DNA from: Candidatus Acidiferrales bacterium
Lineage (GTDB): Bacteria; Verrucomicrobiota; Verrucomicrobiia; Limisphaerales; UBA11358
Direction of reading: 5' to 3'
Length of the DNA: 49,831 nt
Assembly: GCA_035482455.1 (NCBI GenBank)
Contig: DATHQS010000221.1
Coordinates: 1-49,831, forward strand
Part shown: positions 2,229 through 33,253 of the stretch, in pieces
How positions within the stretch are numbered: the stretch's first letter is position 1
How the letters are laid out: every line of letters begins with the position of its first letter
Made by a program: the position numbers and the translations under genes
The notes under the pieces: model-generated
The model's input: only the letters and a program-made list of their open reading frames with translations
Database searches by the model: none
What the model was told of the DNA's origin: nothing

Positions 2229-2259
2229 TTTGAAAACTTGTCAAGCCGGCAAAAAAGAC

Positions 2260-2374
2260 CGCCCTCATTTCTCCCCCAGCCGAACGGCTGCAGTTTTTGT
2301 GAAAATGCTCTATCGCTCGCAAGAGGGATTGAAAGAAAAAGCGATTTTCCGCATTGTTGCCTCAACCACCATGA
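2260..2374 (+). repeat. 115-bp direct repeat, copy A (left flank of the TA cassette)
   Basis: cgccctcatttctcccccagccgaacggctgcagtttttgtgaaaatgctctatcgctcgcaagagggattgaaagaaaaAgcgAtttTccgcattgttgcctcaaccaccatga. Differs from copy B (3205..3319) at 3 positions. Confidence 0.9.
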
Positions 2375-2707: not shown

Positions 2708-3073
2708 TCACTCCTCATGGGTGTGGGCTTTGGGGTTCTTTTCAAACTTTCGTTTTCGTTCAAGGGCTTTCTCAATTTCTTTTGGTGGCACGGCCGCCTC
2801 TTTGACGAGACCGTGCGAGAGCACGGCCGCCGTCCGGCCCTGAAAGAAATATAGCATCCGGTAATTTACGTGTTGCAGTCCGACCCGAAGCTCATAAATG
2901 CCATCACGCAAAAAATCGGCTTCCGGTCGTCTGAGTTCATGGCCCAATTCCTCAAGCCGCTCAATCCTGACAGTGCATTTGTCGAGCGCTTTGGTCGGCA
3001 ACGAATCAAGCCATTCGAGGATTGGCACCGAGCCGTCGTCTTCCTTGAAGAAGACCACTTTAGTCTTCGGCAT
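2708..3073 (-). CDS. Type II toxin, Gp49-like/RelE-HigB superfamily
   Basis: 121 aa. VVFFKEDDGSVPILEWLDSL...RIERLEELGHELRRPEADFLRDGIYELRV...YRMLYFF matches the phage Gp49-like (PF05973-type) pattern. Toxin-first order with an XRE partner. Confidence 0.8.
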   Translation of the reverse strand: MPKTKVVFFKEDDGSVPILEWLDSLPTKALDKCTVRIERLEELGHELRRPEADFLRDGIYELRVGLQHVNYRMLYFFQGRTAAVLSHGLVKEAAVPPKEIEKALERKRKFEKNPKAHTHEE

Positions 3074-3100
3074 CTTTGCCCTTTCTCATTGCCTCAAATA

Positions 3101-3114: not shown

Positions 3115-3204
3115 AGTTTGTCAAGTTCCACTTTGCCCGTTTTCTGTGCCTGCGTTTCGTGGCAAAAGGTTCCACCGCTGGCGGTTCTCGAAATCATGAA
3201 ATAT

Positions 3205-3319
3205 CGCCCTCATTTCTCCCCCAGCCGAACGGCTGCAGTTTTTGTGAAAATGCTCTATCGCTCGCAAGAGGGATTGAAAGAAAAGGCGGTTTCCCGCATT
3301 GTTGCCTCAACCACCATGA
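3205..3319 (+). repeat. 115-bp direct repeat, copy B (right flank of the TA cassette; includes the start codon of the AKR gene)
   Basis: About 97% identical to 2260..2374. Its last bases are ...ccaccATGa, where ATG 3316 is the AKR start. Confidence 0.9.
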
Positions 3320-6545: not shown

Positions 6546-6640
6546 GAGTTGATTCAATTTTAGAACCGCCGGGGGGCGGCAAACGATAAGTGCGATTCAA
6601 ACCATTAAACCTTTCCCGCCTGCCATGGTCAATCCCTCTT

Positions 6641-6690
6641 GAGAGCGATTGAAAGAAAAGGCGATTTCCCGCATTGTTGCTTCATCCATG
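6641..6690 (+). promoter_or_regulatory. Third copy of the ~50-nt GATTGAAAGAAAAGGCG(A/G)TTTCCCGCATTGTTGC element, ending at the start codon
   Basis: gagagcgattgaaagaaaaggcgatttcccgcattgttgcttcatccATG aligns with 3268..3318 and 2323..2373. Possible TTGAAA(-35)-N17-CATTGT(-10), which would give a very short leader. Confidence 0.5.
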
Positions 6691-9582
6691 CAAAGAAAAA
6701 ACCTTCCCGGCCAACACCAGCAATGGATTTTTGCTTTTTGCATTCTCATTTTCTACGCGGCCACGCCTTCCGTTTTGGCCGCGTCATTTTATCCGGAAAA
6801 ATTGGCCGATCCCAAAGCCGTCCGCCTGGTGCCGTCCGGCGGCGATGACACGGCGGCGCTGCAAGGTGCCGTGGACAAGGTCCAGGAAACGACGCGGCAG
6901 GGCATCGTCCTGCTTGCACCGGGCCGGTATCACCTTACCAACACGATTTATATCTGGCCGGGCATCCGGCTGATCGGCAATGGCGCGGAACGCCCGGTAT
7001 TCATTTTGCCCGCCAAGACACCGGGCTTCGGCGATGCCACGCGTGAGAAGGTCCTGTTTTTCTTTGCCGGCCGCCGTCCGTCCAATGCCGGGGACCGGGT
7101 GCCGGATGCGAGTCCCGGCACGTTCTATTCCGCGCTCGCGAACGTGGATGTGCACATTGAAAAGGGAAATCCCGGCGCGGTCGGCGTGCGCGCGCGTTAC
7201 GCCCAGCATTGTTTCCTCGCACACATGGATTTCCAGCTCGGCGACGCGCTGGCCGGCATCCACGAGGGCGGTAACGTGGTCGAGGACGCCCGTTTTTTCG
7301 GGGGCACCCATGCGGTCTGGACCTCAAAGCCCTCGCCGGGCTGGCAATTCACCTTTGTCGATTGCTCGTTTGAAGGCCAGCTTGGGTCGGCCATTTTTGA
7401 ACACGAAGCCGGGCTCACGCTCATCCGTCCGCTATTCCGCCATGTGCCGGCGGCGGTCGAGATTGAAACCAACTGGGTGGATGAACTGTGGGTCAAGGAT
7501 GCCCGGCTCGAAAACATCTCCGGCGCGGCCTTTGTGTTTGGCATGGAAAAAAGCCCGCGCCAGGAAATCAATCTGGAAGGGATCACCTGTCGCAACGTGC
7601 CGGTCTTTGCCGCGTTGCGCGACAGCGGCCGGCATTTCACCGCGCCGTCAGCAATCTATTCGGTAAAAACTTTTTCCCACGGACTGGGTTTTGCGGACCT
7701 CGGCGCCGAACCGAAAATCGAAACCCGTTTTGATGCCGCGCCGCTGGCCGAAATGCCGCCGCCGGTCGCTTCCGATCTGGCCCCGTTGCCAGCCGGTGAT
7801 ACGTGGGTCAATGTCCGCAACCTTGGTGCCAAGGGCGACGGCCAAACCGACGACACCGCCGCATTGCAAAAGGCGATCGCCAATCATCGCACGCTTTATT
7901 TTCCCTCCGGCTTTTACCTTGTGCATGACACGTTGGCATTGCGGTCCGATTCGGTTTTGATCGGCCTGCATCCGGGCGCCACGCAAATCATCGTGCCGGA
8001 CAACTCGCCTGCGTTTGTCGGCACCGGCGCGCCGGTGGCGTTGCTCGCCGCGCCCAAAGGCGGCAGCAACATCGTCGTCGGCATCGGGCTTTACACGGGC
8101 GGAAACAATCCGCGCGCCGTCGCGGCGTTGTGGCGGGCCGGGGCCAATTCGCTGATGAACGATGTCCGCTTTCTCGGCGGCCACGGCACGCCGTTGCCCG
8201 GCGGTTCGCGTGAAAACCCCTATAACCCGGATCACACCGCCGATCCCAATCCCAATCGCCACTGGGACAGCGAAAATCCAAGCCTCTGGGTCACGGATGG
8301 CGGCGGCGGCACGTTCCTCGATCTGTGGACGCCCTCGACCTTCGCCCGGGCGGGCATGCTCGTTTCTGACACGGAGACGCCCGGCCGCGCCTACCAGATT
8401 TCCAGCGAGCATCATGTGCACAACGAGATCGAGGTGCGCAACTCAGCGCACTGGAGCTTTTACGCCTTGCAGACCGAGGAAGAATGGGGCGAAGGCGGCT
8501 TGTGCCTGCCCATTGGAATCGATTCCTCCAGCGACATCACGTTTGCGAATTTTCACAGCTATCGCGTTATCCGTTCGTATCAGCCGTTTCCCTGGGCGGT
8601 GAAGATTTCCAACTCGCGCGACATCCGTTTCCGGAATTTTCATGCCGACAGCAACAGCAAGGTCAGTTTTGATGCCTCCATCTATGACCAGGATCACGAA
8701 TCCGTGTTGCGCGATCATGAATTTGCCTCTTGGGACATTTCGGGCGAACCACCTCCCGCCAAACCGCCGACGGCTTCACCCGTTGTCGCCGAAGGCGCGA
8801 AATTAGATAAACTGGCGGATGGTTTTTTTAACATTTCCGGCGGTGCGGTGGATCCGCAGGGCAATTTTTATTTTGTGGATGCGCATTCGCGGCGGATTTA
8901 TCGCTGGGATTCTGTCATGCATCAGCTATCCACCAACGCTGTTTCCTTCCCGCCGGTCAGCGCCATGGTGGATCAGGCGGGCAATCTGATGGTCGTTTCC
9001 GATGCCGGCGAAGGCGCCGTTTATTCCATCGCCCTCGACGGCAAAGCCACGCAGCTGAAATCCCAGCCGCTTGCCGGTACAACCGGGAAGAATTTGTATC
9101 TGCCCGTCAGCGACTGGCATTTGAACCGCGATTCACTGTCACAGCCGACGGCCGAATTTGTTTCACCGGACGGCACGGCCGTCCTGCCGGTCGGCGAAAG
9201 TTTTCTTACCGGTGAAACCAGTTGGGGTGTCAAATCCAGCCCGCAGAACCGCTCGTTCGGTTTCGCCAAAGCCGTGCCCGGCCAACCCTTTTATATCACC
9301 GACGAATCCAACTTGCGAACATGGCAGGCCGGCGTGAATGCGGATGGCAGTTTGACGAATTTTCAGTTGTTCGCCGAACAAGGCGGCGAAAGCGTGACCG
9401 CGAATTCGCATGGCAACGTCTATATCGCCGCCGGGCAGATTTACGTTTACGACCCCGCGGGCAAACTGATCGACACCATCGAAGTCCCCGGACGCCCGAC
9501 GCAGTTGCTGTTCGGCGGCCCGGACGGCAAAACGCTTTTCATCGCCGCCCGGACAGCGCTGTACGCGGTGCGCATGAAATAA
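6688..9582 (+). CDS. Secreted GH55-like beta-helix glycosidase (two pectate-lyase-3-type modules) fused to an SMP-30/gluconolactonase-like beta-propeller
   Basis: Signal peptide MQRKNLPGQHQQWIFAFCILIFYAATPSVLAAS. GGDDTAALQGAVDKV...LLAPGRYHL and VRNLGAKGDGQTDDTAALQKAIANHRTLYFPSGFY are PF12708-type motifs. C-terminus GNFYFVDAHSRRIYRWD...GNVYIAAGQIYVYDPAGKLI...LLFGGPDGKTLFIAARTALYAV is SMP-30/LRE-like. Confidence 0.65.
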   Translation: MQRKNLPGQHQQWIFAFCILIFYAATPSVLAASFYPEKLADPKAVRLVPSGGDDTAALQGAVDKVQETTRQGIVLLAPGRYHLTNTIYIWPGIRLIGNGAERPVFILPAKTPGFGDATREKVLFFFAGRRPSNAGDRVPDASPGTFYSALANVDVHIEKGNPGAVGVRARYAQHCFLAHMDFQLGDALAGIHEGGNVVEDARFFGGTHAVWTSKPSPGWQFTFVDCSFEGQLGSAIFEHEAGLTLIRPLFRHVPAAVEIETNWVDELWVKDARLENISGAAFVFGMEKSPRQEINLEGITCRNVPVFAALRDSGRHFTAPSAIYSVKTFSHGLGFADLGAEPKIETRFDAAPLAEMPPPVASDLAPLPAGDTWVNVRNLGAKGDGQTDDTAALQKAIANHRTLYFPSGFYLVHDTLALRSDSVLIGLHPGATQIIVPDNSPAFVGTGAPVALLAAPKGGSNIVVGIGLYTGGNNPRAVAALWRAGANSLMNDVRFLGGHGTPLPGGSRENPYNPDHTADPNPNRHWDSENPSLWVTDGGGGTFLDLWTPSTFARAGMLVSDTETPGRAYQISSEHHVHNEIEVRNSAHWSFYALQTEEEWGEGGLCLPIGIDSSSDITFANFHSYRVIRSYQPFPWAVKISNSRDIRFRNFHADSNSKVSFDASIYDQDHESVLRDHEFASWDISGEPPPAKPPTASPVVAEGAKLDKLADGFFNISGGAVDPQGNFYFVDAHSRRIYRWDSVMHQLSTNAVSFPPVSAMVDQAGNLMVVSDAGEGAVYSIALDGKATQLKSQPLAGTTGKNLYLPVSDWHLNRDSLSQPTAEFVSPDGTAVLPVGESFLTGETSWGVKSSPQNRSFGFAKAVPGQPFYITDESNLRTWQAGVNADGSLTNFQLFAEQGGESVTANSHGNVYIAAGQIYVYDPAGKLIDTIEVPGRPTQLLFGGPDGKTLFIAARTALYAVRMK

Positions 9583-21935: not shown

Positions 21936-22071
21936 AATGACTAAGGACGAAGACCTAATGACTAATGAATGACGAAGCTCGAATGACGAATGGAAGAATG
22001 AGGCGTCTATCCGCCATTCGTCATTCGTCATTTGAAATTGATTCGTCATTAGGATTTAGAAATTAGTCATT
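21936..22071. repeat. Nested palindromic ATGAC-word element between the ABC ATPase and permease genes
   Basis: Perfect 14-bp inverted repeat CGAATGACGAATGG (21980..21993) / CCATTCGTCATTCG (22014..22027). Outer arms cctaatgactaatgaatgacgaag versus ttcgtcattagg...aattagtcatt. The left arm recurs at 33211..33253. Confidence 0.75.
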
Positions 22072-26081: not shown

Positions 26082-26813
26082 CTACGGCAGCTTCATGATC
26101 TCCGTCCGCAGCCGGCCGATGGTCTGCGACGCCAAGTGCTGGTCGATTGAACCATCGACGGGTTTCTCCAAATCCACGTGGCCGTCGGCAAAGGTGACAT
26201 TCGCCTTTTGGGCATGGCGGAAGTGGGTGTTGGGGAGCGAACTGAAATCAAAGTAATACCACTCTTCAAACATCGGGTTGCTGCTGGAGGCCGGCGCCTG
26301 GAAGGTGTTGACCTGCGCCGTGTCGGTGAAAATAGCGATGGTCGCCGGGCTGGCAATTTTGCTGGTATTCACGGGCTGGTTTCCCGGCCCGCCAAAAATG
26401 TACGAGTTGCAGCCGTAGCTGAAGATGGCGTTGGTGCCCTTGAGCTTGAACTGTGGCGAATTCCAAACGGGCGAGGCGCAGAGGCGCACGGCGCTGCCGC
26501 CGAGGTACGGATAGAGCACGCCGGTGGACAGGTCGAAAGGCCGGTGACCTTCGGGCTGGGTGTTGTCGATCCAGCCGAACCAGTAGAGCGTGCCGCCGTT
26601 CGTGTTGCCAAGATTGTAGCGGAAGGAGTTTCCGCCGTTTTCATCCCAATATAATTGCGTGGCCAGCCCGAGCTGGCGGATGTTGCTGGTGCAATCGGCG
26701 CGCTGGGCGGTGGCCTTGGCGCGCGTGAGCGCGGGCAGCAGCATCGCCGCCAGGATGGCGATGATGGCGATGACCACCAGCAATTCAATCAAGGTGAACG
26801 CGCGCCGTTTCAT
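26082..26813 (-). CDS. Prepilin-type N-terminal cleavage/methylation protein, DUF1559 / H-X9-DG family (pseudopilin-like)
   Basis: [29 protein letters not shown] (class III signal). C-terminal [13 protein letters not shown] is H-X9-DG. The 420-aa track ORF is an in-frame upstream extension through the inserted element. Confidence 0.85.
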
Positions 26814-27008
26814 GCCTGGTGCATCCTGATACTGCTCCAAAATTTCCGCCGCCCCAGGAGCGCGACTGTGCTGAAAGCCAGTCGCAGCAATGTGCAAAGA
26901 CCAAACCGCATACGCATGCGATGGCCGCGCTGTATTCCCACCTTGCTGCGGCTGGTCTCCGACACAGCCGCGCTCCGGGGGCAGGGTAAGGATGCGCCGT
27001 TTCATGCC
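26802..27008. mobile_element. MITE-like 192-bp insertion bounded by an identical 15-bp direct duplication (GCGCCGTTTCATGCC)
   Basis: 15-mers at 26802..26816 and 26994..27008 are identical and each contains the minus-strand ATGAAACGGCGC (MKRR). The internal body has 34-nt inverted arms (26857..26890 / 26943..26976, 27/34 matches). Each arm is itself a 7-bp hairpin (GCGACTG...CAGTCGC; GCGGCTG...CAGCCGC). Imperfect terminal inverted repeats atcctgatactgc / gcagggtaaggat. Confidence 0.55.
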
Positions 27009-27766
27009 GCGGCCTCCAGATGTTGTTTCATCTGCCGGAAACCGTGGATGAGCCGGTAGCCGGGCTGCAGGATGTCTTCGCCGGCGATCTCGTGCACACG
27101 GCCGGAACGCACGGCGGCCAGATTTTCCCAGCCCGGGCGCGCGGCAATCTCCGCCGTCCGCAGCGGTTTGCCGCACCACGAGGCAAAAATGATCTCCGGA
27201 CGGGTGGCGCAGACCTGGGCGGGCAACACCACGCGCTCCATGGCCGCGCGGCGGTTTCGCAATTCCGGAAAAACATCCTCGCCGCCGGCGCGCTCGATCA
27301 ATTCCCCGACCCAGCCGATGCCGGAGATGAGCGGGTCGTTCCATTCCTCGAAATAAACCCGGGGACGGACCGGCCGCGAGACCGGCGCCAACTGTTCACG
27401 AAATTCGGCCAGCAGCTGTTCCGCCGCCGGTTCGCAATCCACAATCCGCGCCAGCAAGGCGAGCGTGTTTTCAACCTCCGCCAGCGTGCGCTGGTTGGTG
27501 GCCAGCACGGACAATCCCCGCTGCATGAGTTCGGAGGCCAACTTGGCCTGCACATCGGAAAAAGTGATGACGAGGTCGGGGCGCAGTTGCACGATCTGCT
27601 CCAGGTTCGCGGAACTGAAGCCGCTGACGCGCGGTTTGGGCGGCGCTGCCGGTGGCGGATTGAAGAACGCCGTGACGCCCACCACGCGCTCCCACGCGCC
27701 AATGCGCCAGAGCCAGTCCGCCGCCTCGGCGGACAGACAGACGATGCGCTGGGGGATGCGGTTCAT
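27002..27766 (-). CDS. BtuF-like cobalamin/siderophore-type periplasmic-binding-fold protein (PBP type 2) with no recognisable signal peptide
   Basis: [26 protein letters not shown]...[16 protein letters not shown]...[27 protein letters not shown] matches the BtuF/Peripla_BP_2 pattern. ATG 27766 overlaps the upstream stop (ATGA). The N-terminus MNRIPQRIV has no hydrophobic leader. Confidence 0.75.
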
Positions 27767-28125
27767 TTGACGGCAAAGGGATTGGGCTCGGTTGCAAACG
27801 GACAATGGCGGCAGCCGCTGTCACAACAATAACCGCGCCGGTAGTGATACGCCGCGGTAAAAACCATCAGCCCGCCGTCGAAATAGAAATCGCCGGGCAG
27901 GACTTTTAACGCGGGCGTGCCGTTGGTCTTGGACCGGTGAAATTTCATCACGCAAGCGCGGCAGATGCAGGCCTGGTTCCGGTATTCCACCGGGATCTTG
28001 GCGATGAGTTCCTCGGGAATCTTCACCTTCGCGCACCAGCACGGCCCCTTGTAGGCGGCAAAACTGCTCAACTGGCAGTCGTTCAAACCGCCGCACAAGG
28101 GACACAGGCTGGGATTGAGGCTCAT
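27763..28125 (-). CDS. Cysteine-rich protein: CWC-type domain fused to a DUF5522-like CCxxGCRHCP domain
   Basis: From ATG 28125: MSLNPSLCPLCGGLNDCQ...GPCWCAKVKIP...ACICRACV (Cys_rich_CWC pattern), then YFDGGLMVFTAAYHYRRGYCCDSGCRHCPF (DUF5522 pattern). 13 Cys in 120 aa. ATGA overlaps with both neighbouring genes. Confidence 0.7.
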   Translation of the reverse strand: MSLNPSLCPLCGGLNDCQLSSFAAYKGPCWCAKVKIPEELIAKIPVEYRNQACICRACVMKFHRSKTNGTPALKVLPGDFYFDGGLMVFTAAYHYRRGYCCDSGCRHCPFATEPNPFAVK

Positions 28126-29732
28126 GGGCGGTCGGCGCGGATGCGGTAGAACGCCTTGTCCGGCGGGGTGGCCGGATCGGCGATGACGGTGGTGGTGCCG
28201 TTGCCGGCGGTGCTGGCGGCGGCCGACCAGCCTTGCAGGTCGGCGCTGCGTTCCAGCGTGTAAGTCCAGTTCGTCCGGCTCAGGAACTGCGCCTGCCACT
28301 GGCCGGCCTGGATGCCGCCGGCGAGATTTTGCACGGGGGGCGGCGGCAGGCTGACGACGAAATTATCCACGACGCCGTGGGCGAGGATGTCGTCACCAAA
28401 ACCATCGCCCGTGTAACTGCTGATGGAAACCGTATCCAAGCGGAAGTAATTGATGTTGGCCGGAAAGTAAAAGGGCAGCGCCGTGTAAAGCACGCCATTG
28501 GTCAGCACCTGGCCGGTGATGTTCGTTGAGCCGGCCGCGTGCGAAAGGATGATTTGATACGTGACGCCGGGGCTGAGCGTCAGGTTGTCATAGGCGAACG
28601 CCAGCCCGTCGAAGCCGGGCTGCGTGTCCTTCAGCGTGGCGTCGATGGAGTCCAGGTCGTAGTAGAGATTGGCGGGGAAATAATCGAACTCGAACAGGTT
28701 GGGTGAGTTGCCGCCGGCGCGGGCGAAGGCGGCGTTGGTGGCGTCGGCGAGATTGAAGAGGCCGATGGAGATTTCGTTGGCACCGCCAAACGTCGTCAGA
28801 TCGTTCAACGTAAAATCAAACGAGACGGTGAAGGCGTCGTCGCTGGTGAGCACCGTGCCGAGCGGGTGATACAGATAGCTGTTCACATCGGTGGAATCCC
28901 AGGTGACTTCCACGTTGTGGTTGGTGGGGTTCCAGTGGAAGAGGTTGGTATCGCCGAAATATTTCCAGCCGTTCAACGCCGGGTCGGTGTAAAAATCATC
29001 AGCAAACACCGGCAGCGCGCCGCTCACGCTGGAGAGGGCGTCCACTTCCGATTTGTTGCCGAGCACGTTGATGCGGACGTAACGCACGATGGGGATGTTC
29101 ACGGAATTTCCATTCGTATCCTGCGCCCAGGCGAGGTCGTAGCCGGTGCCGCCCGCCGAGCCGTTATACAGCGCGCGGATGCCGGCGAGGCCCAGGCCGC
29201 CAAAGCTGTTGGTCGTGAGCGCGGGGTTCACCGGCAGATGCGGATTGCCGAGGCCGTCGGTCGGGTAGATGTTGTCCACCGTGGGCGCGAGCGCGGGGTT
29301 GAGCGTGTACCAGTTCACGCCGTCGGCGCTGACTTCCACGCGGGTGGCATCGAGGTTGTTGCCGCCAATCGCGCCGGAGGTGATGCCGCCGCCGGAAAAA
29401 TTGCCGTTCGTGATGGCAAAGAAGGTGTTCCCAAAGATCAGGAAATCCAGACCGAACGGGTTGGACGGGTCGTTGATGATCGGCTGGTCGAAGCGCACGG
29501 TGAGCGAGCCGTTGGTGCCGATGGAGACGAGTTGCGACTTGGAGAACGGCGGGCCGAACGGGGTGATGGATGCGCCGGAAGCCGGGGCGCCGAGGACGGC
29601 GCCGGTGTTGGTGAAGCCGTTGGCGGCACCGGTGCCACGGTCAAAGTCGATCACGGCACTGGCGAATTGGGCATGGACGGAAACGACGGACAGGACGAAC
29701 AGGCTGGCGAGCGCCAGCGGACGGATTTTCAT
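28122..29732 (-). CDS. Secreted 536-aa protein of unknown function, first gene after the cobalamin riboswitch
   Basis: Signal MKIRPLALASLFVLSVVSVHAQ. N-terminal domain VIDFDRGTGAANGF...QLVSIGTNGSLTVRFDQPIINDPSNPFGLDFLIFGN...RVEVSADGVNWY. Central ConA/LamG-like region. C-terminal module ...YTLERSADLQGWSAA...AFYRIRADRP is shared with the fibro-slime protein at 31348..32325. Confidence 0.75.
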   Translation of the reverse strand: MKIRPLALASLFVLSVVSVHAQFASAVIDFDRGTGAANGFTNTGAVLGAPASGASITPFGPPFSKSQLVSIGTNGSLTVRFDQPIINDPSNPFGLDFLIFGNTFFAITNGNFSGGGITSGAIGGNNLDATRVEVSADGVNWYTLNPALAPTVDNIYPTDGLGNPHLPVNPALTTNSFGGLGLAGIRALYNGSAGGTGYDLAWAQDTNGNSVNIPIVRYVRINVLGNKSEVDALSSVSGALPVFADDFYTDPALNGWKYFGDTNLFHWNPTNHNVEVTWDSTDVNSYLYHPLGTVLTSDDAFTVSFDFTLNDLTTFGGANEISIGLFNLADATNAAFARAGGNSPNLFEFDYFPANLYYDLDSIDATLKDTQPGFDGLAFAYDNLTLSPGVTYQIILSHAAGSTNITGQVLTNGVLYTALPFYFPANINYFRLDTVSISSYTGDGFGDDILAHGVVDNFVVSLPPPPVQNLAGGIQAGQWQAQFLSRTNWTYTLERSADLQGWSAAASTAGNGTTTVIADPATPPDKAFYRIRADRP

Positions 29733-29819
29733 TTGGCTGATCTTTCATTTCGGTCCCGTGAAAAAAAATCACGGAACGGATTTACAGTTGGAAGACCAGC
29801 GCAGAAATGAATTGCTCAT

Positions 29820-29883
29820 CGTTCCCGTCCCCGTCCCCGTCCCCGTTCGAAAAATTTCGAGGACGAGGACGAGGACGAGGACG
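29820..29883 (-). repeat. Hexamer-repeat hairpin in the riboswitch leader: (CGUCCU)x4 - loop - (CGGGGA)x4 on the minus-strand RNA
   Basis: Plus strand: cgttcccgtccccgtccccgtccccg ttcgaaaaatttcga ggacgaggacgaggacgaggacg. On the minus-strand transcript GUCCUC pairs with GGGGAC using one G-U wobble per hexamer (18 contiguous bp plus about 4 more). On the plus-strand transcript these become C-A mismatches. Confidence 0.8.
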
Positions 29884-29889
29884 AAAAGC

Positions 29890-29928
29890 AAAAAAGCCTT
29901 CATCTCCGGCAAAACGGGGAATGAAGGC
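29890..29928 (-). terminator. Rho-independent terminator candidate (riboswitch expression platform)
   Basis: Minus strand GCCTTCAT-17 nt-ATGAAGGC followed by TTTTTT (A6 at 29890..29895 on the plus strand). Lies about 90 nt 3' of the aptamer and about 160 nt 5' of the ATG at 29732. Confidence 0.6.
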
Positions 29929-30019
29929 ATTCAACGAGTCCCGCCGAAAACAGATCGGCGGGCTGGCTCCATCCTTCTCTTTGCGGAGAAGTGCCCCGAA
30001 ATCGTTCGGGGCTGACGAG

Positions 30020-30161
30020 CGCAGTCAAACCGGTATCCTGACTTGGGCTTCAGACCTTTTCCCGCCTTCCCGTCCTTGCGGACAGTGGCATTGGGAATTG
30101 TAGCCGTTACAGTGGCGCAACCGTCCCGGATTCACACCGGGTTCCCAGACATTTGACTGCG
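30020..30161 (-). promoter_or_regulatory. Cobalamin (B12) riboswitch aptamer
   Basis: Minus strand: CGCAGTCAAA(P1)...GGGAACCCGGTGTGAATCCGGGACGG...GCGCCACTGTAACGG...AATGCCACTGTCC...GGGAAGGCGGG...AAGTCAGGATACCGG (B12 box, 30030..30044)...TTTGACTGCG(P1'). All hallmark blocks of the RF00174-type consensus are present in the right order. Confidence 0.9.
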
Positions 30162-30239
30162 ATATCGGCGGAATCGCTTCCGCCGTTTCAAAGAACAGGG
30201 ACAGTTCTACGCGGAATAAAAAATTTTCCAAGCAAAATA

Positions 30240-30336: not shown

Positions 30337-30846
30337 TCAGTTGCGTTCACGACCGATAATGCCGACAATGTCATTCCAAATCTTCCATTCAGCGTCATCG
30401 TAGAACTCGGTCTTGAGCGGGTAATTGGGGTGGCGCCCAAGGGCGCTGTTCAAACGGCTCATAAATTCACCGCGATCTTTGGCATAGAAAAGCCATTCCT
30501 TGAAATCCATACCGGTTGAGACGAGCATGAGAAACGAGTAACCATTGTACGAGGTAAGCTCTTCAATCGCCGCTTCAAAAACCAGTTGTTGAGCGTTCAC
30601 GTCGCTGGGCGGCATACCGGAATCTCCGCCCTCGTAGTTCCATCGGATCGAAATACCAGTGGCGTACGAACCAATATCCGCAATCGGAGGTTTGGTTGTG
30701 CGAAGGCGATACACCACTCTTGCTTCAGCATTCTCCACCTCCGCCATAACCCAGTGATTCAACTCATCAGGAGGCATCTCGTTCCTATCATTCCTACCAA
30801 ATAATCTGTTGAGGAATTTCACAAGCTCATAAAGGGACCCTAGCAT
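30337..30846 (-). CDS. Hypothetical protein, DUF695-like (tentative)
   Basis: 169 aa, A/T-richer than surrounding DNA. GISIRWNYEGGDSGMPP...FEAAIEEL...LMLVSTGMDFKEWLFYAKD...DDAEWKIW resembles my recollection of DUF695. Family assignment not verified. Confidence 0.5.
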   Translation of the reverse strand: MLGSLYELVKFLNRLFGRNDRNEMPPDELNHWVMAEVENAEARVVYRLRTTKPPIADIGSYATGISIRWNYEGGDSGMPPSDVNAQQLVFEAAIEELTSYNGYSFLMLVSTGMDFKEWLFYAKDRGEFMSRLNSALGRHPNYPLKTEFYDDAEWKIWNDIVGIIGRERN

Positions 30847-30914
30847 TTATACCAGACTGATTTCATCTGGTTCAAGATTGTCACAAAATCCGGGCTTCGT
30901 CCATTGCACAACTT

Positions 30915-31058
30915 CTAAGGCAACGCAATCAGTCCAACTGTATGGCGATGGGTGCAAAAACTGGGGCTGACCCCATCACGGGGATGATTCTTCGGGACGC
31001 GGCGACCGTACATCAGGCCGGTGGTGCCGTCGTCGCCGGTTTTGGTGGCGATGCTCAT
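30915..31058 (-). pseudogene. 5' remnant of a PduO-type ATP:cob(I)alamin adenosyltransferase gene
   Basis: Own translation (too short for the ORF track): MSIATKTGDDGTTGLMYGRRVPKNHPR|DGVSPSFCTHRHTVGLIALP*. The first 27 aa match the conserved PduO/MMAB N-terminus (xYTrtGDxGxTxLxxGxRvxKddxR). The expected VEAYG...DEL continuation is absent and the sequence turns A/T-rich near 30980. Confidence 0.65.
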
Positions 31059-31094
31059 TGTGTTTCACGGGAGGAAATTCAAGGCACGTGAAAA

Positions 31095-31126
31095 GTTGAA
31101 GAGTTAAAGCGTTGAAGGGTTGAAGC
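31095..31126 (+). repeat. Octamer tandem repeat GTTGAAGA/GTTAAAGC/GTTGAAGG/GTTGAAGC
   Basis: Read directly. Shares the GTTGAA/TTCAAC core with 33701..33750 and 38926..38958. Confidence 0.85.
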
Positions 31127-31347
31127 GGGACAATGCCACAGGCCAAAAGCGGCGCTGAAGCAGCCGCTTTCGACCGTGCTCGCCGCGTACGAATTTGCAA
31201 GACGCTGGGCAGGGTTAGGATGCCCCTCTGCCGCTCATGACTTCCCGGCGGCGGCAGTATGTTCCAAAATGGAACTAACTGAATCTTCCCCTAATTCGCC
31301 AGTTTTGAAGATGCTTGGTGACCGCCGTCGGTTGAGACGTCGAGATG

Positions 31348-32325
31348 CTATCGGCGCGCCCGGAAAAAGACGCTATTAGTCGGAGTGAAGCTGTAAGGGG
31401 ATGAAACTTGCGGGTTCACATCCTGCCAATGGACCAAATCCGTGCTTTGCTGGAGTATGCCCTCGCAGGTGAGTTGCACTTGTGAGCCGGCCTTCACAAT
31501 GCCGACCGTCGGCGGAAGCGCGGACGTGATGTTCGCCAAATTGCTGAGGGTCAGGGTAAAGTTTGAACCACACGTGTGACGCTGGGCTTGAAAGATGTCC
31601 ACAGTAACCGTCTGTCCGTAGGAGAGTCCCAGCGCCACCATCGCAGCGGATAATGCAGACCAGGTGCCAGTAATCGGGCTGTGATCGCCACCGAGATCAA
31701 TCACCAGGGTACCGTTAATAAAAATCCAGATGTCATTGCCGCCGGTGACGGTGATGGTCGCGGAGCTGTTGTTGAGTTTCGTGGTGAACTTGATGTGCGT
31801 GGCGAAACAGAAATTATGCGGACCGCTTAAGTCGCAGGCAGAGTCGCCTTGAGACCCGTCCGAATTGAAGCCCTGGCCATCGAGCGGAAAGAAATCGATG
31901 CCGGAAGACTGGAAGACGCCCACGCTGGTATTGGTCAGCGTCAACGTGCCCGGAACATAAACATTGGTGCCCGGAGTCGTTTGATACCACTGGGCGAACG
32001 AAGCCGCGCTGGTGATCTGCGTTGTGGACGCGGTGCCGGTCGAAGATGCAAATATCGGCAATCCATTCGCACCCAGATTGTTTTGCACCAGGCCATCGGC
32101 CACCCCGGTGCTGCTAACATAAGCATCAAAGTCCGGATGGCCGGCTCCGGCATGACCACCGTAAGTGCCCGGCGCGGTGCCAGAGTAAAGAAAGTCCCAA
32201 TAATCAACCTGGAGATTGATGGTGCTTTGGGCGAAGCCGGCCGTGGCCTTGAGCAGAAGCAGCATGGCGATGAAATAATTCCGGCAGGAATTTGCTTTTG
32301 TGCGGACGAAGCAATGAAATTTCAT
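31348..32325 (-). CDS. Secreted fibro-slime (PA14-like) domain protein
   Basis: FFPLDGQGFNSDG...PHNFCFATHIKFTTKL...GGNDIWIFINGTLVIDLGGDHS matches the fibro-slime signature. Hydrophobic N-terminus. C-terminal module LQQSTDLVHWQDV...VFFRARR. Confidence 0.7.
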   Translation of the reverse strand: MKFHCFVRTKANSCRNYFIAMLLLLKATAGFAQSTINLQVDYWDFLYSGTAPGTYGGHAGAGHPDFDAYVSSTGVADGLVQNNLGANGLPIFASSTGTASTTQITSAASFAQWYQTTPGTNVYVPGTLTLTNTSVGVFQSSGIDFFPLDGQGFNSDGSQGDSACDLSGPHNFCFATHIKFTTKLNNSSATITVTGGNDIWIFINGTLVIDLGGDHSPITGTWSALSAAMVALGLSYGQTVTVDIFQAQRHTCGSNFTLTLSNLANITSALPPTVGIVKAGSQVQLTCEGILQQSTDLVHWQDVNPQVSSPYSFTPTNSVFFRARR

Positions 32326-32340
32326 TACATGCTAATACCA

Positions 32341-32731
32341 GAGAGCGGTCAAGAATGTCAAAGTATTGGTGCAGGAAAATGTTCGCTGCGAGGTTATTGG
32401 AGCCCTTCGCACGGTCTTGCGGTGCGTCGTATTCCACGACCGTTGCCTCAACGAGTTGATCCATTCGCCTGGCCACGGCCTCGTGCAACCGCTGCAAGCA
32501 ATCCATCCGGTATTCCTTGCTGCTTTGCGAAAAGGTGTTGAAGGCCTCTTTCGCAGCACCGATGGCTTTTCGGGTGTCGATTTCGTCTGCCATGGTGACC
32601 TTGCCGATAACCTTGTTGTCGGTCGGGTTCACCAGATCGACGACCCGGGTTCCATGGGGAATGACGAACTGGCCATTGATATAGGCGCGATTAAAGGCCC
32701 TTACTGGAGTCGTGGTTTCATGTGTTTTCAT
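32341..32731 (-). pseudogene. 5' remnant (about 130 codons) of an aldehyde dehydrogenase gene
   Basis: MKTHETTTPVRAFNRAYINGQFVIPHGTRVVDLVNPTDNKVIGKVTMADEIDTRKAIGAAKEAFNTFSQSSKEYRMDCLQRLHEAVARRMDQLVEATVVEYDAPQDRA... has ALDH N-terminal architecture (INGxxV..NP....a..D...Ai.AAk.AF). Full-length ALDHs are about 480 aa. Here the frame degenerates and runs into the start of the fibro-slime gene. Confidence 0.65.
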
Positions 32732-33210
32732 TTGTGTCACCTTTCACGGGGTTTCGGCTTTACCAAGGTCGCTGTGTCTCTCAGGACCCCGGTTCACGAT
32801 TTCAGTATTGCTCAAAAGCTGGTTGGCGTAACTAGCAAAAGACGCCAATGCTCTTGCAGAACGCGCCAAACGGTTTATTGCCGCAAACGGCTGGTTGCAG
32901 AAAAGGGCAGTAAACCGAGATGGGAAAACGACCCGTCAGGTCGTTGATTGCCAAAAACCCAATTTTTTTTGAATTTTCGGCCGCTTTTTGGCGTGGGCTG
33001 TTAAATGCAAGTTGCTGGTTGAAAGTTATTAGCAGAAGCGTTTTACGTTTTTTGGGTCAGGAGGCATTCCCACTCCCGAAAAAAGAAAATAAATGGCATA
33101 AATCTGCATTCTACATTCCCGGGAGAAATTCAACTTTCAGACATCTGTGATTTAATCGGGGTGTGAGACGCGAATTGTACATATGGTGCGAACGGAAAAG
33201 CGCGAGGTGG

Positions 33211-33253
33211 AAATGACTAATGACTAAAACCTAATGTCTAATGAATGACGAAG
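33211..33253 (+). repeat. Second copy of the ATGAC-word repeat
   Basis: atgactaatgactaaaacctaatgtctaatgaatgacgaag aligns with 21937..21977 (atgactaaggacgaagacctaatgactaatgaatgacgaag). Confidence 0.7.

Follow-up and report, generated by a model that had tools for sequence, protein, structure and literature searches.

A cobalamin riboswitch operon encoding a DUF1559 pseudopilin, a candidate corrinoid acquisition module of Verrucomicrobiota

What does a cobalamin riboswitch control when none of the genes behind it belongs to a recognized vitamin B12 pathway? This question is raised by a stretch of 49,831 nucleotides (hereafter the window) that makes up positions 1 to 49,831 of contig DATHQS010000221.1 (assembly GCA_035482455.1, Candidatus Acidiferrales bacterium, placed by GTDB in the Limisphaerales of the Verrucomicrobiota). 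On its minus strand, a cobalamin riboswitch precedes four genes encoding, in order, a 536-aa protein with a Sec-type signal (the first protein), a Cys-rich CWC/DUF5522 protein, a BtuF-like protein devoid of signal peptide and a DUF1559/H-X9-DG prepilin-like protein (the pseudopilin) (Table 1). An initial annotation, made from the nucleotide sequence alone, had described this locus as a riboswitch regulon without btuB, btuCD or cob genes. Our analysis of the window and of related loci confirmed this description and revealed that the arrangement is conserved. We propose that the operon is a B12-repressed module for corrinoid acquisition and handling that is specific to Verrucomicrobiota (Limisphaerales/Pedosphaera-type), a proposal that we hold with a probability of roughly 55%. 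Its best reading is that of a new variant of riboswitch-controlled corrinoid acquisition with a novel architecture.

Riboswitch, leader and conserved core of the operon

A search of the window against Rfam returned a single family, RF00174, which matched the minus strand at 86.5 bits (gathering score 31.5, E = 4.8e-20) and covered model positions 1-189 of 189. The cobalamin aptamer recognized by the initial annotation is therefore present at full length. The leader that separates it from the first gene is strongly structured, as the fold of positions 29720..30030 was far more stable than that of shuffled sequences (z = -8.9). Read from 5' to 3', it contains three hairpins, a terminator-like stem, a U-tract, a 22-bp hairpin made of hexamer repeats, and a last hairpin located directly before the start codon at 29732. 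The hairpins covary across 10 orthologous leaders, with compensatory changes at 12 pairs, and the U-tract is kept in these leaders. Covariation of the hairpins and retention of the U-tract fit with control by transcription termination, and the three hairpins and U-tract terminator predicted initially are thus well supported. A scan for consensus terminators did not flag this terminator, which we recognized by folding and conservation, probably because its hairpin misfits the simple stem-loop pattern used by the scan. We also considered a short upstream open reading frame (ORF) at 29931..29972, which the initial annotation had mentioned as speculative. The ORF exists, but its length ranges from 4 to 33 codons among orthologues and its changes follow those of the RNA hairpin; hence, we rejected it as a conserved peptide. 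CCTCGT/CCTCAT repeats akin to the hexamer-repeat hairpin of the window were observed at the equivalent place of the leader in two other loci, L003 and L045.

Relatives of the first protein were found at 312 places in species-representative genomes. The best 80 loci were fetched and are the basis of all counts out of 80 given below. The gene content of these loci was taken from tblastn searches and from the collection's own gene calls; greedy chaining of ORFs proved unreliable in GC-rich genomes and was dropped. A covariance model was built from 31 aptamers found with a strict pattern and then run over the 80 loci; the family-specific model, R1, scores the window aptamer at 187.8 bits. In 76 of the 80 loci, the first-gene homologue is preceded at a distance of 200-450 nt by an aptamer on the same strand, and the five weakest of these orthologous aptamers still reached 61-72 bits when re-tested with Rfam. 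Among the four loci without a match, L035 opens inside the conserved leader terminator and the other three are too short upstream. The linkage between the riboswitch and the first gene is thus near-obligate. The scan covered about 1.09 Mb and returned one extra aptamer only, a second cobalamin riboswitch in L057 (111..283, minus strand) that lies on the opposite strand, points towards the contig end and is divergent from the operon's own riboswitch. In a further locus, L081 (9700..9925), the 5' part of the aptamer is replaced by unrelated sequence, while the 3' strand of P1 and the expression platform survive. This locus keeps the same leader terminator sequence, has no pseudopilin and adjoins TrwC/TraG-type conjugation genes.

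The pseudopilin follows the same pattern. An orthologous pseudopilin gene lies downstream on the same strand in 71/80 loci, with 45-83% identity over the full length of the protein, and six of the nine loci without it are cut by contig ends. Together, the counts for the riboswitch and the pseudopilin define a conserved core composed of the riboswitch, the first gene and the pseudopilin gene. The DUF1559 gene is therefore a core member of the operon rather than an add-on. The initial annotation was right to include it as the fourth gene and to tie a member of the DUF1559 family to a ligand regulon, but the peripheral standing that it gave to the gene did not hold. It had also proposed to look for the gene quartet and an upstream riboswitch in genomes of the Planctomycetes-Verrucomicrobia-Chlamydiae (PVC) group. 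In the related loci, the riboswitch and the pseudopilin are near-constant, and the BtuF-like gene is present in a minority of loci only and is thus accessory. Association of the riboswitch by chance, or control of the first gene alone, was rejected on the basis of the conserved gene order, overlaps and fusions.

In the window, the first gene and the CWC gene share an ATGA overlap, as do the CWC gene and the BtuF-like gene, and ATGA is also found at the stop codon of the BtuF-like gene, in agreement with the overlaps reported initially. More than 1,300 protein clusters are homologous to the first protein; all those that carry an organism name belong to Verrucomicrobia, and none has a functional name. 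One metagenome-assembled genome, CAMAWP01, was observed to contain the module twice (L009 and L014), once in a minimal form consisting of the first gene and the pseudopilin gene, and once in an extended form that also includes PF01902, DUF6580, BtuF-like and CWC genes. This duplication recalls the multiple btu loci of Bacteroides.

A BtuH-like domain in the first protein

Searches of Pfam and NCBIfam with the first protein and 78 of its relatives assigned no family and gave scattered F5/8-type-C and PEP-CTERM matches only. DUF4465, the family of BtuJ, matched neither the first protein nor any of the 78 relatives. The initial annotation had stated that the protein belongs to no family that could be named, which holds for Pfam; its N-terminal domain, however, has recognizable neighbours. 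When the family profile was compared with all sequences of the Protein Data Bank (PDB), a single entry was returned, 8blw_B, which is BtuG1 of Bacteroides thetaiotaomicron. The match consists of two collinear stretches (BtuG1 residues 391-492 and 611-641; E = 1.4e-4 and 2.8e-4). The matched part of BtuG1 is its C-terminal 'H-domain', a homologue of the domain by which BtuH2 binds B12 (PMC10404256, PMC8941943).

Structure prediction pointed in the same direction. When the N-terminal domain (N-domain) was modelled by itself using 78 sequences, it reached a predicted local distance difference test score (pLDDT) of 91.3, and the three best Foldseek matches of this model were BtuG1 (8blw_B, 4.2e-8) and the two chains of BtuH2 (7biz_B, 1.2e-4; 7biz_A, 4.7e-4), followed by CBM32-type domains from 4.5e-3 on. 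The predicted fold is therefore nearer to the BtuH-type domain than to other galactose-binding-like domains. The fold comparison suggested by the initial annotation thus placed BtuG1 and BtuH2 first, but profile alignment was less decisive, as hhalign aligned the N-domain with BtuH-type sequences at E = 1.7e-4 and 30% identity over 76 columns with a probability of only 49%. The model of the full-length protein was of moderate quality (pLDDT 71); its C-terminal half is similar to legume lectins and to the jelly rolls of alginate lyases.

In BtuH2, cobalamin is contacted by Gln333, Asn399, Phe401, His476, Tyr510, Trp511, Trp577 and Leu578, among which Asn399 and Phe401 touch the phosphate and the 5,6-dimethylbenzimidazole lower base (PMC8941943). 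Asn399 and Phe401 align with an invariant FGNxFF motif of the first-protein family. These comparisons indicate that the N-domain is probably a divergent BtuH-type domain, for which corrinoid binding is predicted from sequence and model. With BtuG1 and BtuH2 as its closest relatives by both profile and fold, the suggestion that this capture system would be structurally unrelated to that of Bacteroides is contradicted. The BtuH-like domain is included in 43/80 loci; in some of these, a gap of 100-230 nt splits the two halves. In two operons with gene calls, L088 and L094, the operon opens with a separate PEP-CTERM-anchored gene, and in some relatives it appears to be a separate PEP-CTERM-anchored protein that carries the BtuH-like domain.

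The pseudopilin, its fusions and its partners

The pseudopilin of the window carries the N-terminal methylation motif of its class (PF07963, E = 2e-8, 33.8 bits; TIGR02532, 30.9 bits) and a C-terminal H-X9-DG motif at residues 198-213 (TIGR04294, 21.2 bits for a cut-off of 19). On PF07596, it scored 21.2 bits for a gathering score of 23.3, with a match limited to residues 31-55, and many homologues sharing 62-82% identity with it have a precomputed PF07596 match. A sequence search of the PDB with the pseudopilin matched through the pilin helix only. Position -1 of the prepilin peptidase site is canonically Gly. At the corresponding site in the window (26799..26813), it is Ala, as in 54 of 77 orthologues, with Gly in 19/77. 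Type IV pilin-like proteins do not usually have Ala at this position.

Between the BtuF-like and pseudopilin genes, the window contains an additional 192 nt, which amount to 64 codons in frame with the pseudopilin gene and free of stop codons. On a twin contig from the Joint Genome Institute (JGI), a 307-aa read-through product is called across this segment. We consider the spacer to be an insertion because it is missing from the orthologous junctions of L002, L016 and L088, where the BtuF-like and pseudopilin genes abut or overlap. The initial annotation had likewise viewed the spacer as an insertion, an idea that these junctions support. A 30-nt core of the insertion (GACTGGCTTTCAGCACAGTCGCGCTCC-like) is present in three copies in L061, an unrelated locus, pointing to a small dispersed repeat element. 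The 64 codons placed before the pilin motif may be tolerated in the same way as N-terminal fusions, or translation may start at an internal ATG.

Such N-terminal fusions are frequent in this subfamily. In at least 17 loci, the CWC sequence is in frame with the pseudopilin without an intervening stop codon, in the order CWC, linker, (A/G)FTLIELLVV helix and DUF1559. Independent gene calls gave the same picture: among the 120 best homologues of the window pseudopilin, 33 contain both PF14375 (CWC) and PF07963, in proteins about 315-335 aa long. P0257 combines CWC, DUF5522 and pseudopilin, that is, the second and fourth genes of the window in a single chain, whereas P0316 combines DUF1289, CWC and pseudopilin. 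Furthermore, L049, L061 and L091 each contain a single ORF in which the pseudopilin is preceded by a long BtuF-fold domain lacking a signal peptide, alone or together with CWC. In all, the N-terminal domains carried by members of the subfamily (CWC, DUF5522, DUF1289 or BtuF-like) span 60-330 residues. In type IV pilins, the segment that precedes the hydrophobic helix remains cytoplasmic. By this rule, the fusions assign the Cys-rich and BtuF-fold domains to the cytoplasm, a placement that agrees with their lack of signal peptides. These fusions argue that the three downstream products of the window would act jointly at the inner membrane.

The partners are encoded separately in the window. The Cys-rich protein matched PF14375 (6e-14, 52.5 bits for a cut-off of 24) and PF17653 (9e-18, 64.5 bits for a cut-off of 25) and contains 12 Cys residues instead of the 13 counted initially. 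A homologue search with the CWC protein returned Verrucomicrobia only, and a sequence search of the PDB gave no match. Judging from the frequent fusions, the CWC protein would be a partner of the pseudopilin. A wider link between CWC proteins and B12 is hinted at by one paper, which places a CWC protein within a cobamide-synthesis cluster of Sulfurospirillum (PMC7755780).

The BtuF-like protein matched PF01497 over residues 8-227 (1.3e-31). Because it starts at the first beta-strand, it has no signal peptide, as proposed by the initial annotation; the in-frame extension upstream of its start is not signal-like. Its best relatives in the PDB are B12 binders (5ysc, E. coli BtuF; about 1e-12), with binders of iron, nickel and haem close behind. 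On NF002894, the NCBIfam equivalog model for BtuF, it reached 45.1 bits, well below the cut-off of 234. It thus differs from a true BtuF by its equivalog score, by the lack of export and by the lack of adjacent btuCD genes.

In about 15 loci, the first gene and the pseudopilin gene are separated by additional genes. Their products are one or two homologues of Dph6-like ATP pyrophosphatases/ammonia ligases (PF01902), a small membrane protein of the DUF6580 family (11 loci), a Peripla_BP_2 protein that is longer and has no signal peptide (12 loci) and sometimes a DUF1289 protein. The PF01902 ligase could re-amidate corrinoid carboxylates, and the DUF6580 protein is a candidate permease, for which a sequence search of the PDB gave no match.

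Table 1. Features of the riboswitch operon in the window, and related loci carrying the accessory genes.
Feature	Position	Strand	Basis or remarks
Cobalamin riboswitch aptamer (RF00174)	30011..30171	-	Rfam match, 86.5 bits
Leader and expression platform	29733..30010	-	Fold, covariation and conservation; 278 nt
Terminator-like stem GCCUUCAU...AUGAAGGC	29928..29896	-	Folding; followed by UUUUUUGCUUUU
Leader U-tract	29895..29884	-	3' of the terminator-like stem; kept in 10 orthologous leaders
22-bp hexamer-repeat hairpin, (CGTCCT)x4 with (GGGGAC)x3, including G-U pairs	~29820..29883	-	Between terminator and start codon
First gene, 536 aa	28122..29732	-	Sec-type signal; no Pfam match
Sec signal (MKIRPLALASLFVLSVVSVHA/QF)	Residues 1-21 of first protein	-	Sequence
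BtuH-like N-terminal domain	Residues 22-240 of first protein = 29013..29669	-	Profile and fold
ConA/legume-lectin-like jelly roll	~Residues 241-462 of first protein	-	Full-length model
C-terminal small beta-sandwich	Residues 463-536 of first protein	-	Model
CWC + DUF5522 Cys-rich protein, 120 aa	27763..28125	-	PF14375 and PF17653; no signal peptide
Signal-less BtuF-fold protein, 254 aa	27002..27766	-	PF01497
In-frame insertion, 192 nt	26814..27005	-	Between BtuF-like and pseudopilin genes; 12-nt direct repeat ATGAAACGGCGC at ends
DUF1559/H-X9-DG prepilin-like protein, 243 aa	26082..26813	-	PF07963, TIGR02532, TIGR04294
Accessory-set loci	L014, L020, L031, L038, L046, L049, L060, L061, L079, L081, L091		PF01902, DUF6580, Peripla_BP_2, sometimes DUF1289

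Upstream of the riboswitch, the window contains a patch of gene fragments and odd genes (30337..32740). Apart from a DUF695 protein, it encodes a secreted protein of fibro-slime/PA14-like type (31348..32325) and an N-terminal fragment (178 aa) of an aldehyde dehydrogenase (32204..32740), and it includes the remnant of a PduO-type gene (30915..31058) that the initial annotation had cited as reinforcing a corrinoid theme. This 47-aa ORF matches profile positions 1-25 of 171 of PF01923 (E = 7e-7) and then diverges, and the profile continues beyond it in none of the frames. The truncated fragment is thus real, but it lies in gene debris and is not a conserved corrinoid-related neighbour. In the closer relatives L086-L088, Ldh and thioesterase genes are found upstream in place of this debris. 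We also tried a C-terminal sorting domain common to the first protein and the fibro-slime protein and rejected it as not significant (E = 0.067). A BtuG-like propeller was likewise rejected as a part of the system, as it was found near the operon in L093 only. There, a YncE/DUF5074-type beta-propeller gene, from the family of BtuG, lies at 7401..8462 on the minus strand, convergent to the operon, with matches to Acido-Lenti-1 RNA (RF01687) on either side (3031..3076 and 8642..8687). Elsewhere in the window, we observed two families of intergenic repeats: a direct repeat of 64-121 nt in three copies (2254..2374, 3199..3319 and 6625..6688) and a AATGACTAATGA-rich repeat that forms an inverted pair at 21936..22071 and has a third copy at 33211..33253.

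Corrinoid acquisition weighed against other roles

According to our proposal, the riboswitch would favour the conserved terminator when cobalamin is plentiful, thereby switching the operon off; when cobalamin is scarce, transcription would pass the terminator and the four proteins would be made. The first protein, once secreted, could then use its BtuH-type N-domain to bind corrinoid on the outer side of the inner membrane, and its ConA-like half and small C-terminal domain may pair with the periplasmic DUF1559 domain of the pseudopilin. The topology deduced from the fusions would make the pseudopilin a bitopic inner-membrane protein with a cytoplasmic N-terminus, which would carry, or recruit when the genes are separate as in the window, the CWC/DUF5522 module and the BtuF-fold protein. 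These cytoplasmic partners might receive, hold or chemically process the incoming corrinoid. The operon of the window encodes no permease; candidates for passage through the membrane are the DUF6580 protein, encoded in 11 related operons, or an unlinked transporter. In this scheme, we infer corrinoid binding, the pairing of the first protein with the pseudopilin, the direction of flow and the chemistry of the Cys-rich module.

Several observations weigh against this proposal. A TonB-dependent receptor or BtuB, and BtuC/D, were found neither in any operon inspected nor elsewhere in the window, where no channel of the outer or inner membrane is encoded, and we know of no established import role for a cytoplasmic class III binding protein. 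The likeness of the N-domain to BtuH is weak in sequence (about 23 bits, with the low hhalign probability given above), Gln333 of BtuH2 is not conserved in the first-protein family, and most corrin contacts of BtuH2 (His476, Tyr510, Trp511 and Trp577) belong to loops that defy alignment because those of the first-protein family are shorter by about 60 residues. Moreover, 37/80 loci lack the BtuH-like domain and have just the ConA-like half and the C-terminal domain. In these operons, the ligand would have to be bound by another component, or the domain would have to be encoded elsewhere. The same loci indicate that the C-terminal half is the invariant partner of the pseudopilin, and that the BtuH-like domain is modular. 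Finally, all loci derive from metagenome-assembled genomes.

A different role for the pseudopilin is suggested by its relatives. Genomes of the PVC group have dozens to hundreds of such pseudopilins beside signal-peptide genes, as exemplified by the pseudopilin paralogues of Tuwongella, which are typically flanked by signal-peptide genes (PMC8567305). In Verruconatronum, a PulG-like pseudopilin gene belongs to an alginate gene cluster and a pseudopilin is among the alginate-induced genes, and the authors suggested that alginate lyases could be exported by type II secretion (PMC13274419). Such pseudopilins, set beside signal-peptide genes or within substrate-specific loci, are also an independent hint in favour of our proposal. 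By analogy, the pseudopilin of the window could be a type II secretion adaptor only, which would carry the secreted B12-capturing protein across the outer membrane. Import would then be ensured by unlinked BtuB/BtuCD-type transporters, with the BtuF-like and CWC proteins trafficking B12 independently. An operon without a channel gene is compatible with such a role. However, it leaves unexplained why CWC, DUF5522, DUF1289 and BtuF-like domains were recurrently fused to the N-terminus of the pseudopilin. Furthermore, these long N-terminal domains are atypical as prepilin leaders, as is the Ala found at position -1 in most orthologues (54/77). We therefore regard a role restricted to secretion as unlikely, though still the leading competitor of corrinoid acquisition by the module itself.

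A bolder version of our proposal would assign the pseudopilin a working part in import. In archaea, the bindosome of Sulfolobus involves sugar-binding proteins with pilin-type signal peptides that serve nutrient uptake, with adjacent assembly ATPases. This system offers an analogy of principle for a pseudopilin in import; no homology is claimed, and there the binding proteins themselves bear the pilin signal. By such a principle, the secreted BtuH/ConA-like protein could be the receptor or cargo carrier of a pilin-based vitamin import machine, in which a periplasm-spanning or retractile 'bindosome' resembling a type II secretion system or type IV pilus would haul corrinoid to the inner membrane and hand it over to the tethered Cys-rich and BtuF-fold partners, thereby replacing the TonB-dependent BtuB route. 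By extension, each of the dozens to hundreds of DUF1559 paralogues in a PVC genome could act as an adaptor for the uptake of a specific substrate, paired with the secreted protein encoded next to it. We consider this route doubtful, and less likely than a riboswitch-controlled variant of corrinoid acquisition, but it is much more novel.

The ligand itself may be questioned. Cobalt transporters and salvage genes are further targets of B12 riboswitches, and class III binding proteins accept metals, haem and siderophores just as well as B12. The module could thus scavenge or repair cobalt, a corrinoid precursor (cobinamide or cobyric acid) or a damaged corrinoid on behalf of a cell that produces or salvages B12. 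The PDB matches of the BtuF-like protein, nearly tied among B12, metal and haem classes, are compatible with such ligands, as are the Cys-rich modules, which could bind metal, and the PF01902 homologues of related operons, which could amidate corrinoid carboxylates. Conversely, the nearest relatives of the N-domain in both structure and sequence are B12 binders, and the residue aligned with the phosphate contact of BtuH2 is invariant, which argues for a corrinoid bearing the nucleotide loop, at least in operons that contain the N-domain. A ligand other than a complete cobamide is thus improbable, more so than the secretion role discussed above. Least plausible is trans-envelope signalling, in which the module would not import corrinoid but report its presence outside the cell, or report another cue, in the manner of a zinc-binding anti-sigma factor or sensor: although the layout of the CWC fusions (cytoplasmic Cys-rich domain, single helix, periplasmic DUF1559 domain) and an extracytoplasmic function (ECF) sigma factor gene located about 1.1 kb downstream in one locus (L083) would fit, the operons inspected share no conserved sigma factor or regulator, the operon is already under an RNA sensor, and the BtuF-fold protein and BtuH-like domain are ligand carriers rather than signalling parts.

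The operon shares some features with known systems. Like the btu loci of Bacteroides (BtuG, BtuH and BtuJ/DUF4465), it has an upstream cobalamin riboswitch, an exported BtuH-type accessory and jelly-roll scaffolds. In contrast with these loci, it lacks BtuB, the BtuG propeller, BtuFCD and DUF4465, its first protein has a Sec signal (or, in relatives, a PEP-CTERM anchor) where those loci use a lipoprotein signal, its BtuH-like domain is joined to a ConA-like domain, and its obligate partner is a DUF1559 pseudopilin. By analogy, the module resembles the accessory capture layer of Bacteroides btu loci, with which it would have one domain type in common without being a member of them. The BtuB-BtuFCD system of E. 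coli likewise combines a B12 riboswitch with a BtuF-fold protein (PF01497), whereas here this protein is signal-less, is fused in relatives to the cytoplasmic side of the pseudopilin, and is accompanied by no BtuC/D or BtuB genes. With other DUF1559/H-X9-DG proteins of the PVC group (PF07596, TIGR04294), the pseudopilin shares the FTLIELLVV and H-X9-DG motifs and a neighbouring signal-peptide gene; its subfamily differs from them by its RNA sensor, the predominance of Ala at position -1 and the frequent cytoplasmic N-terminal domain. Literature searches linking DUF1559, H-X9-DG, pseudopilin or prepilin to B12, cobalamin or riboswitch returned no prior description.

To our knowledge, DUF1559/H-X9-DG proteins form one of the largest families of Planctomycetes and Verrucomicrobia, and no member has a known function. 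The subfamily described here is linked to a cobalamin riboswitch in nearly every case, and thereby acquires a candidate ligand, B12 limitation as its inducing condition, and a set of defined partners. The DUF1559 family thus becomes experimentally approachable for the first time. Pilin-like proteins bearing folded cytoplasmic N-terminal domains represent an unusual architecture for the pilin superfamily. Candidates for the handling of corrinoids inside the cell now include BtuF-fold proteins of the cytoplasm and the Cys-rich modules CWC, DUF5522 and DUF1289. If the N-domain binds corrinoid as predicted, BtuH-type surface capture of corrinoids would not be confined to gut Bacteroidetes, and the abundant Verrucomicrobia of soil and freshwater may obtain B12 without a linked TonB-dependent transporter.

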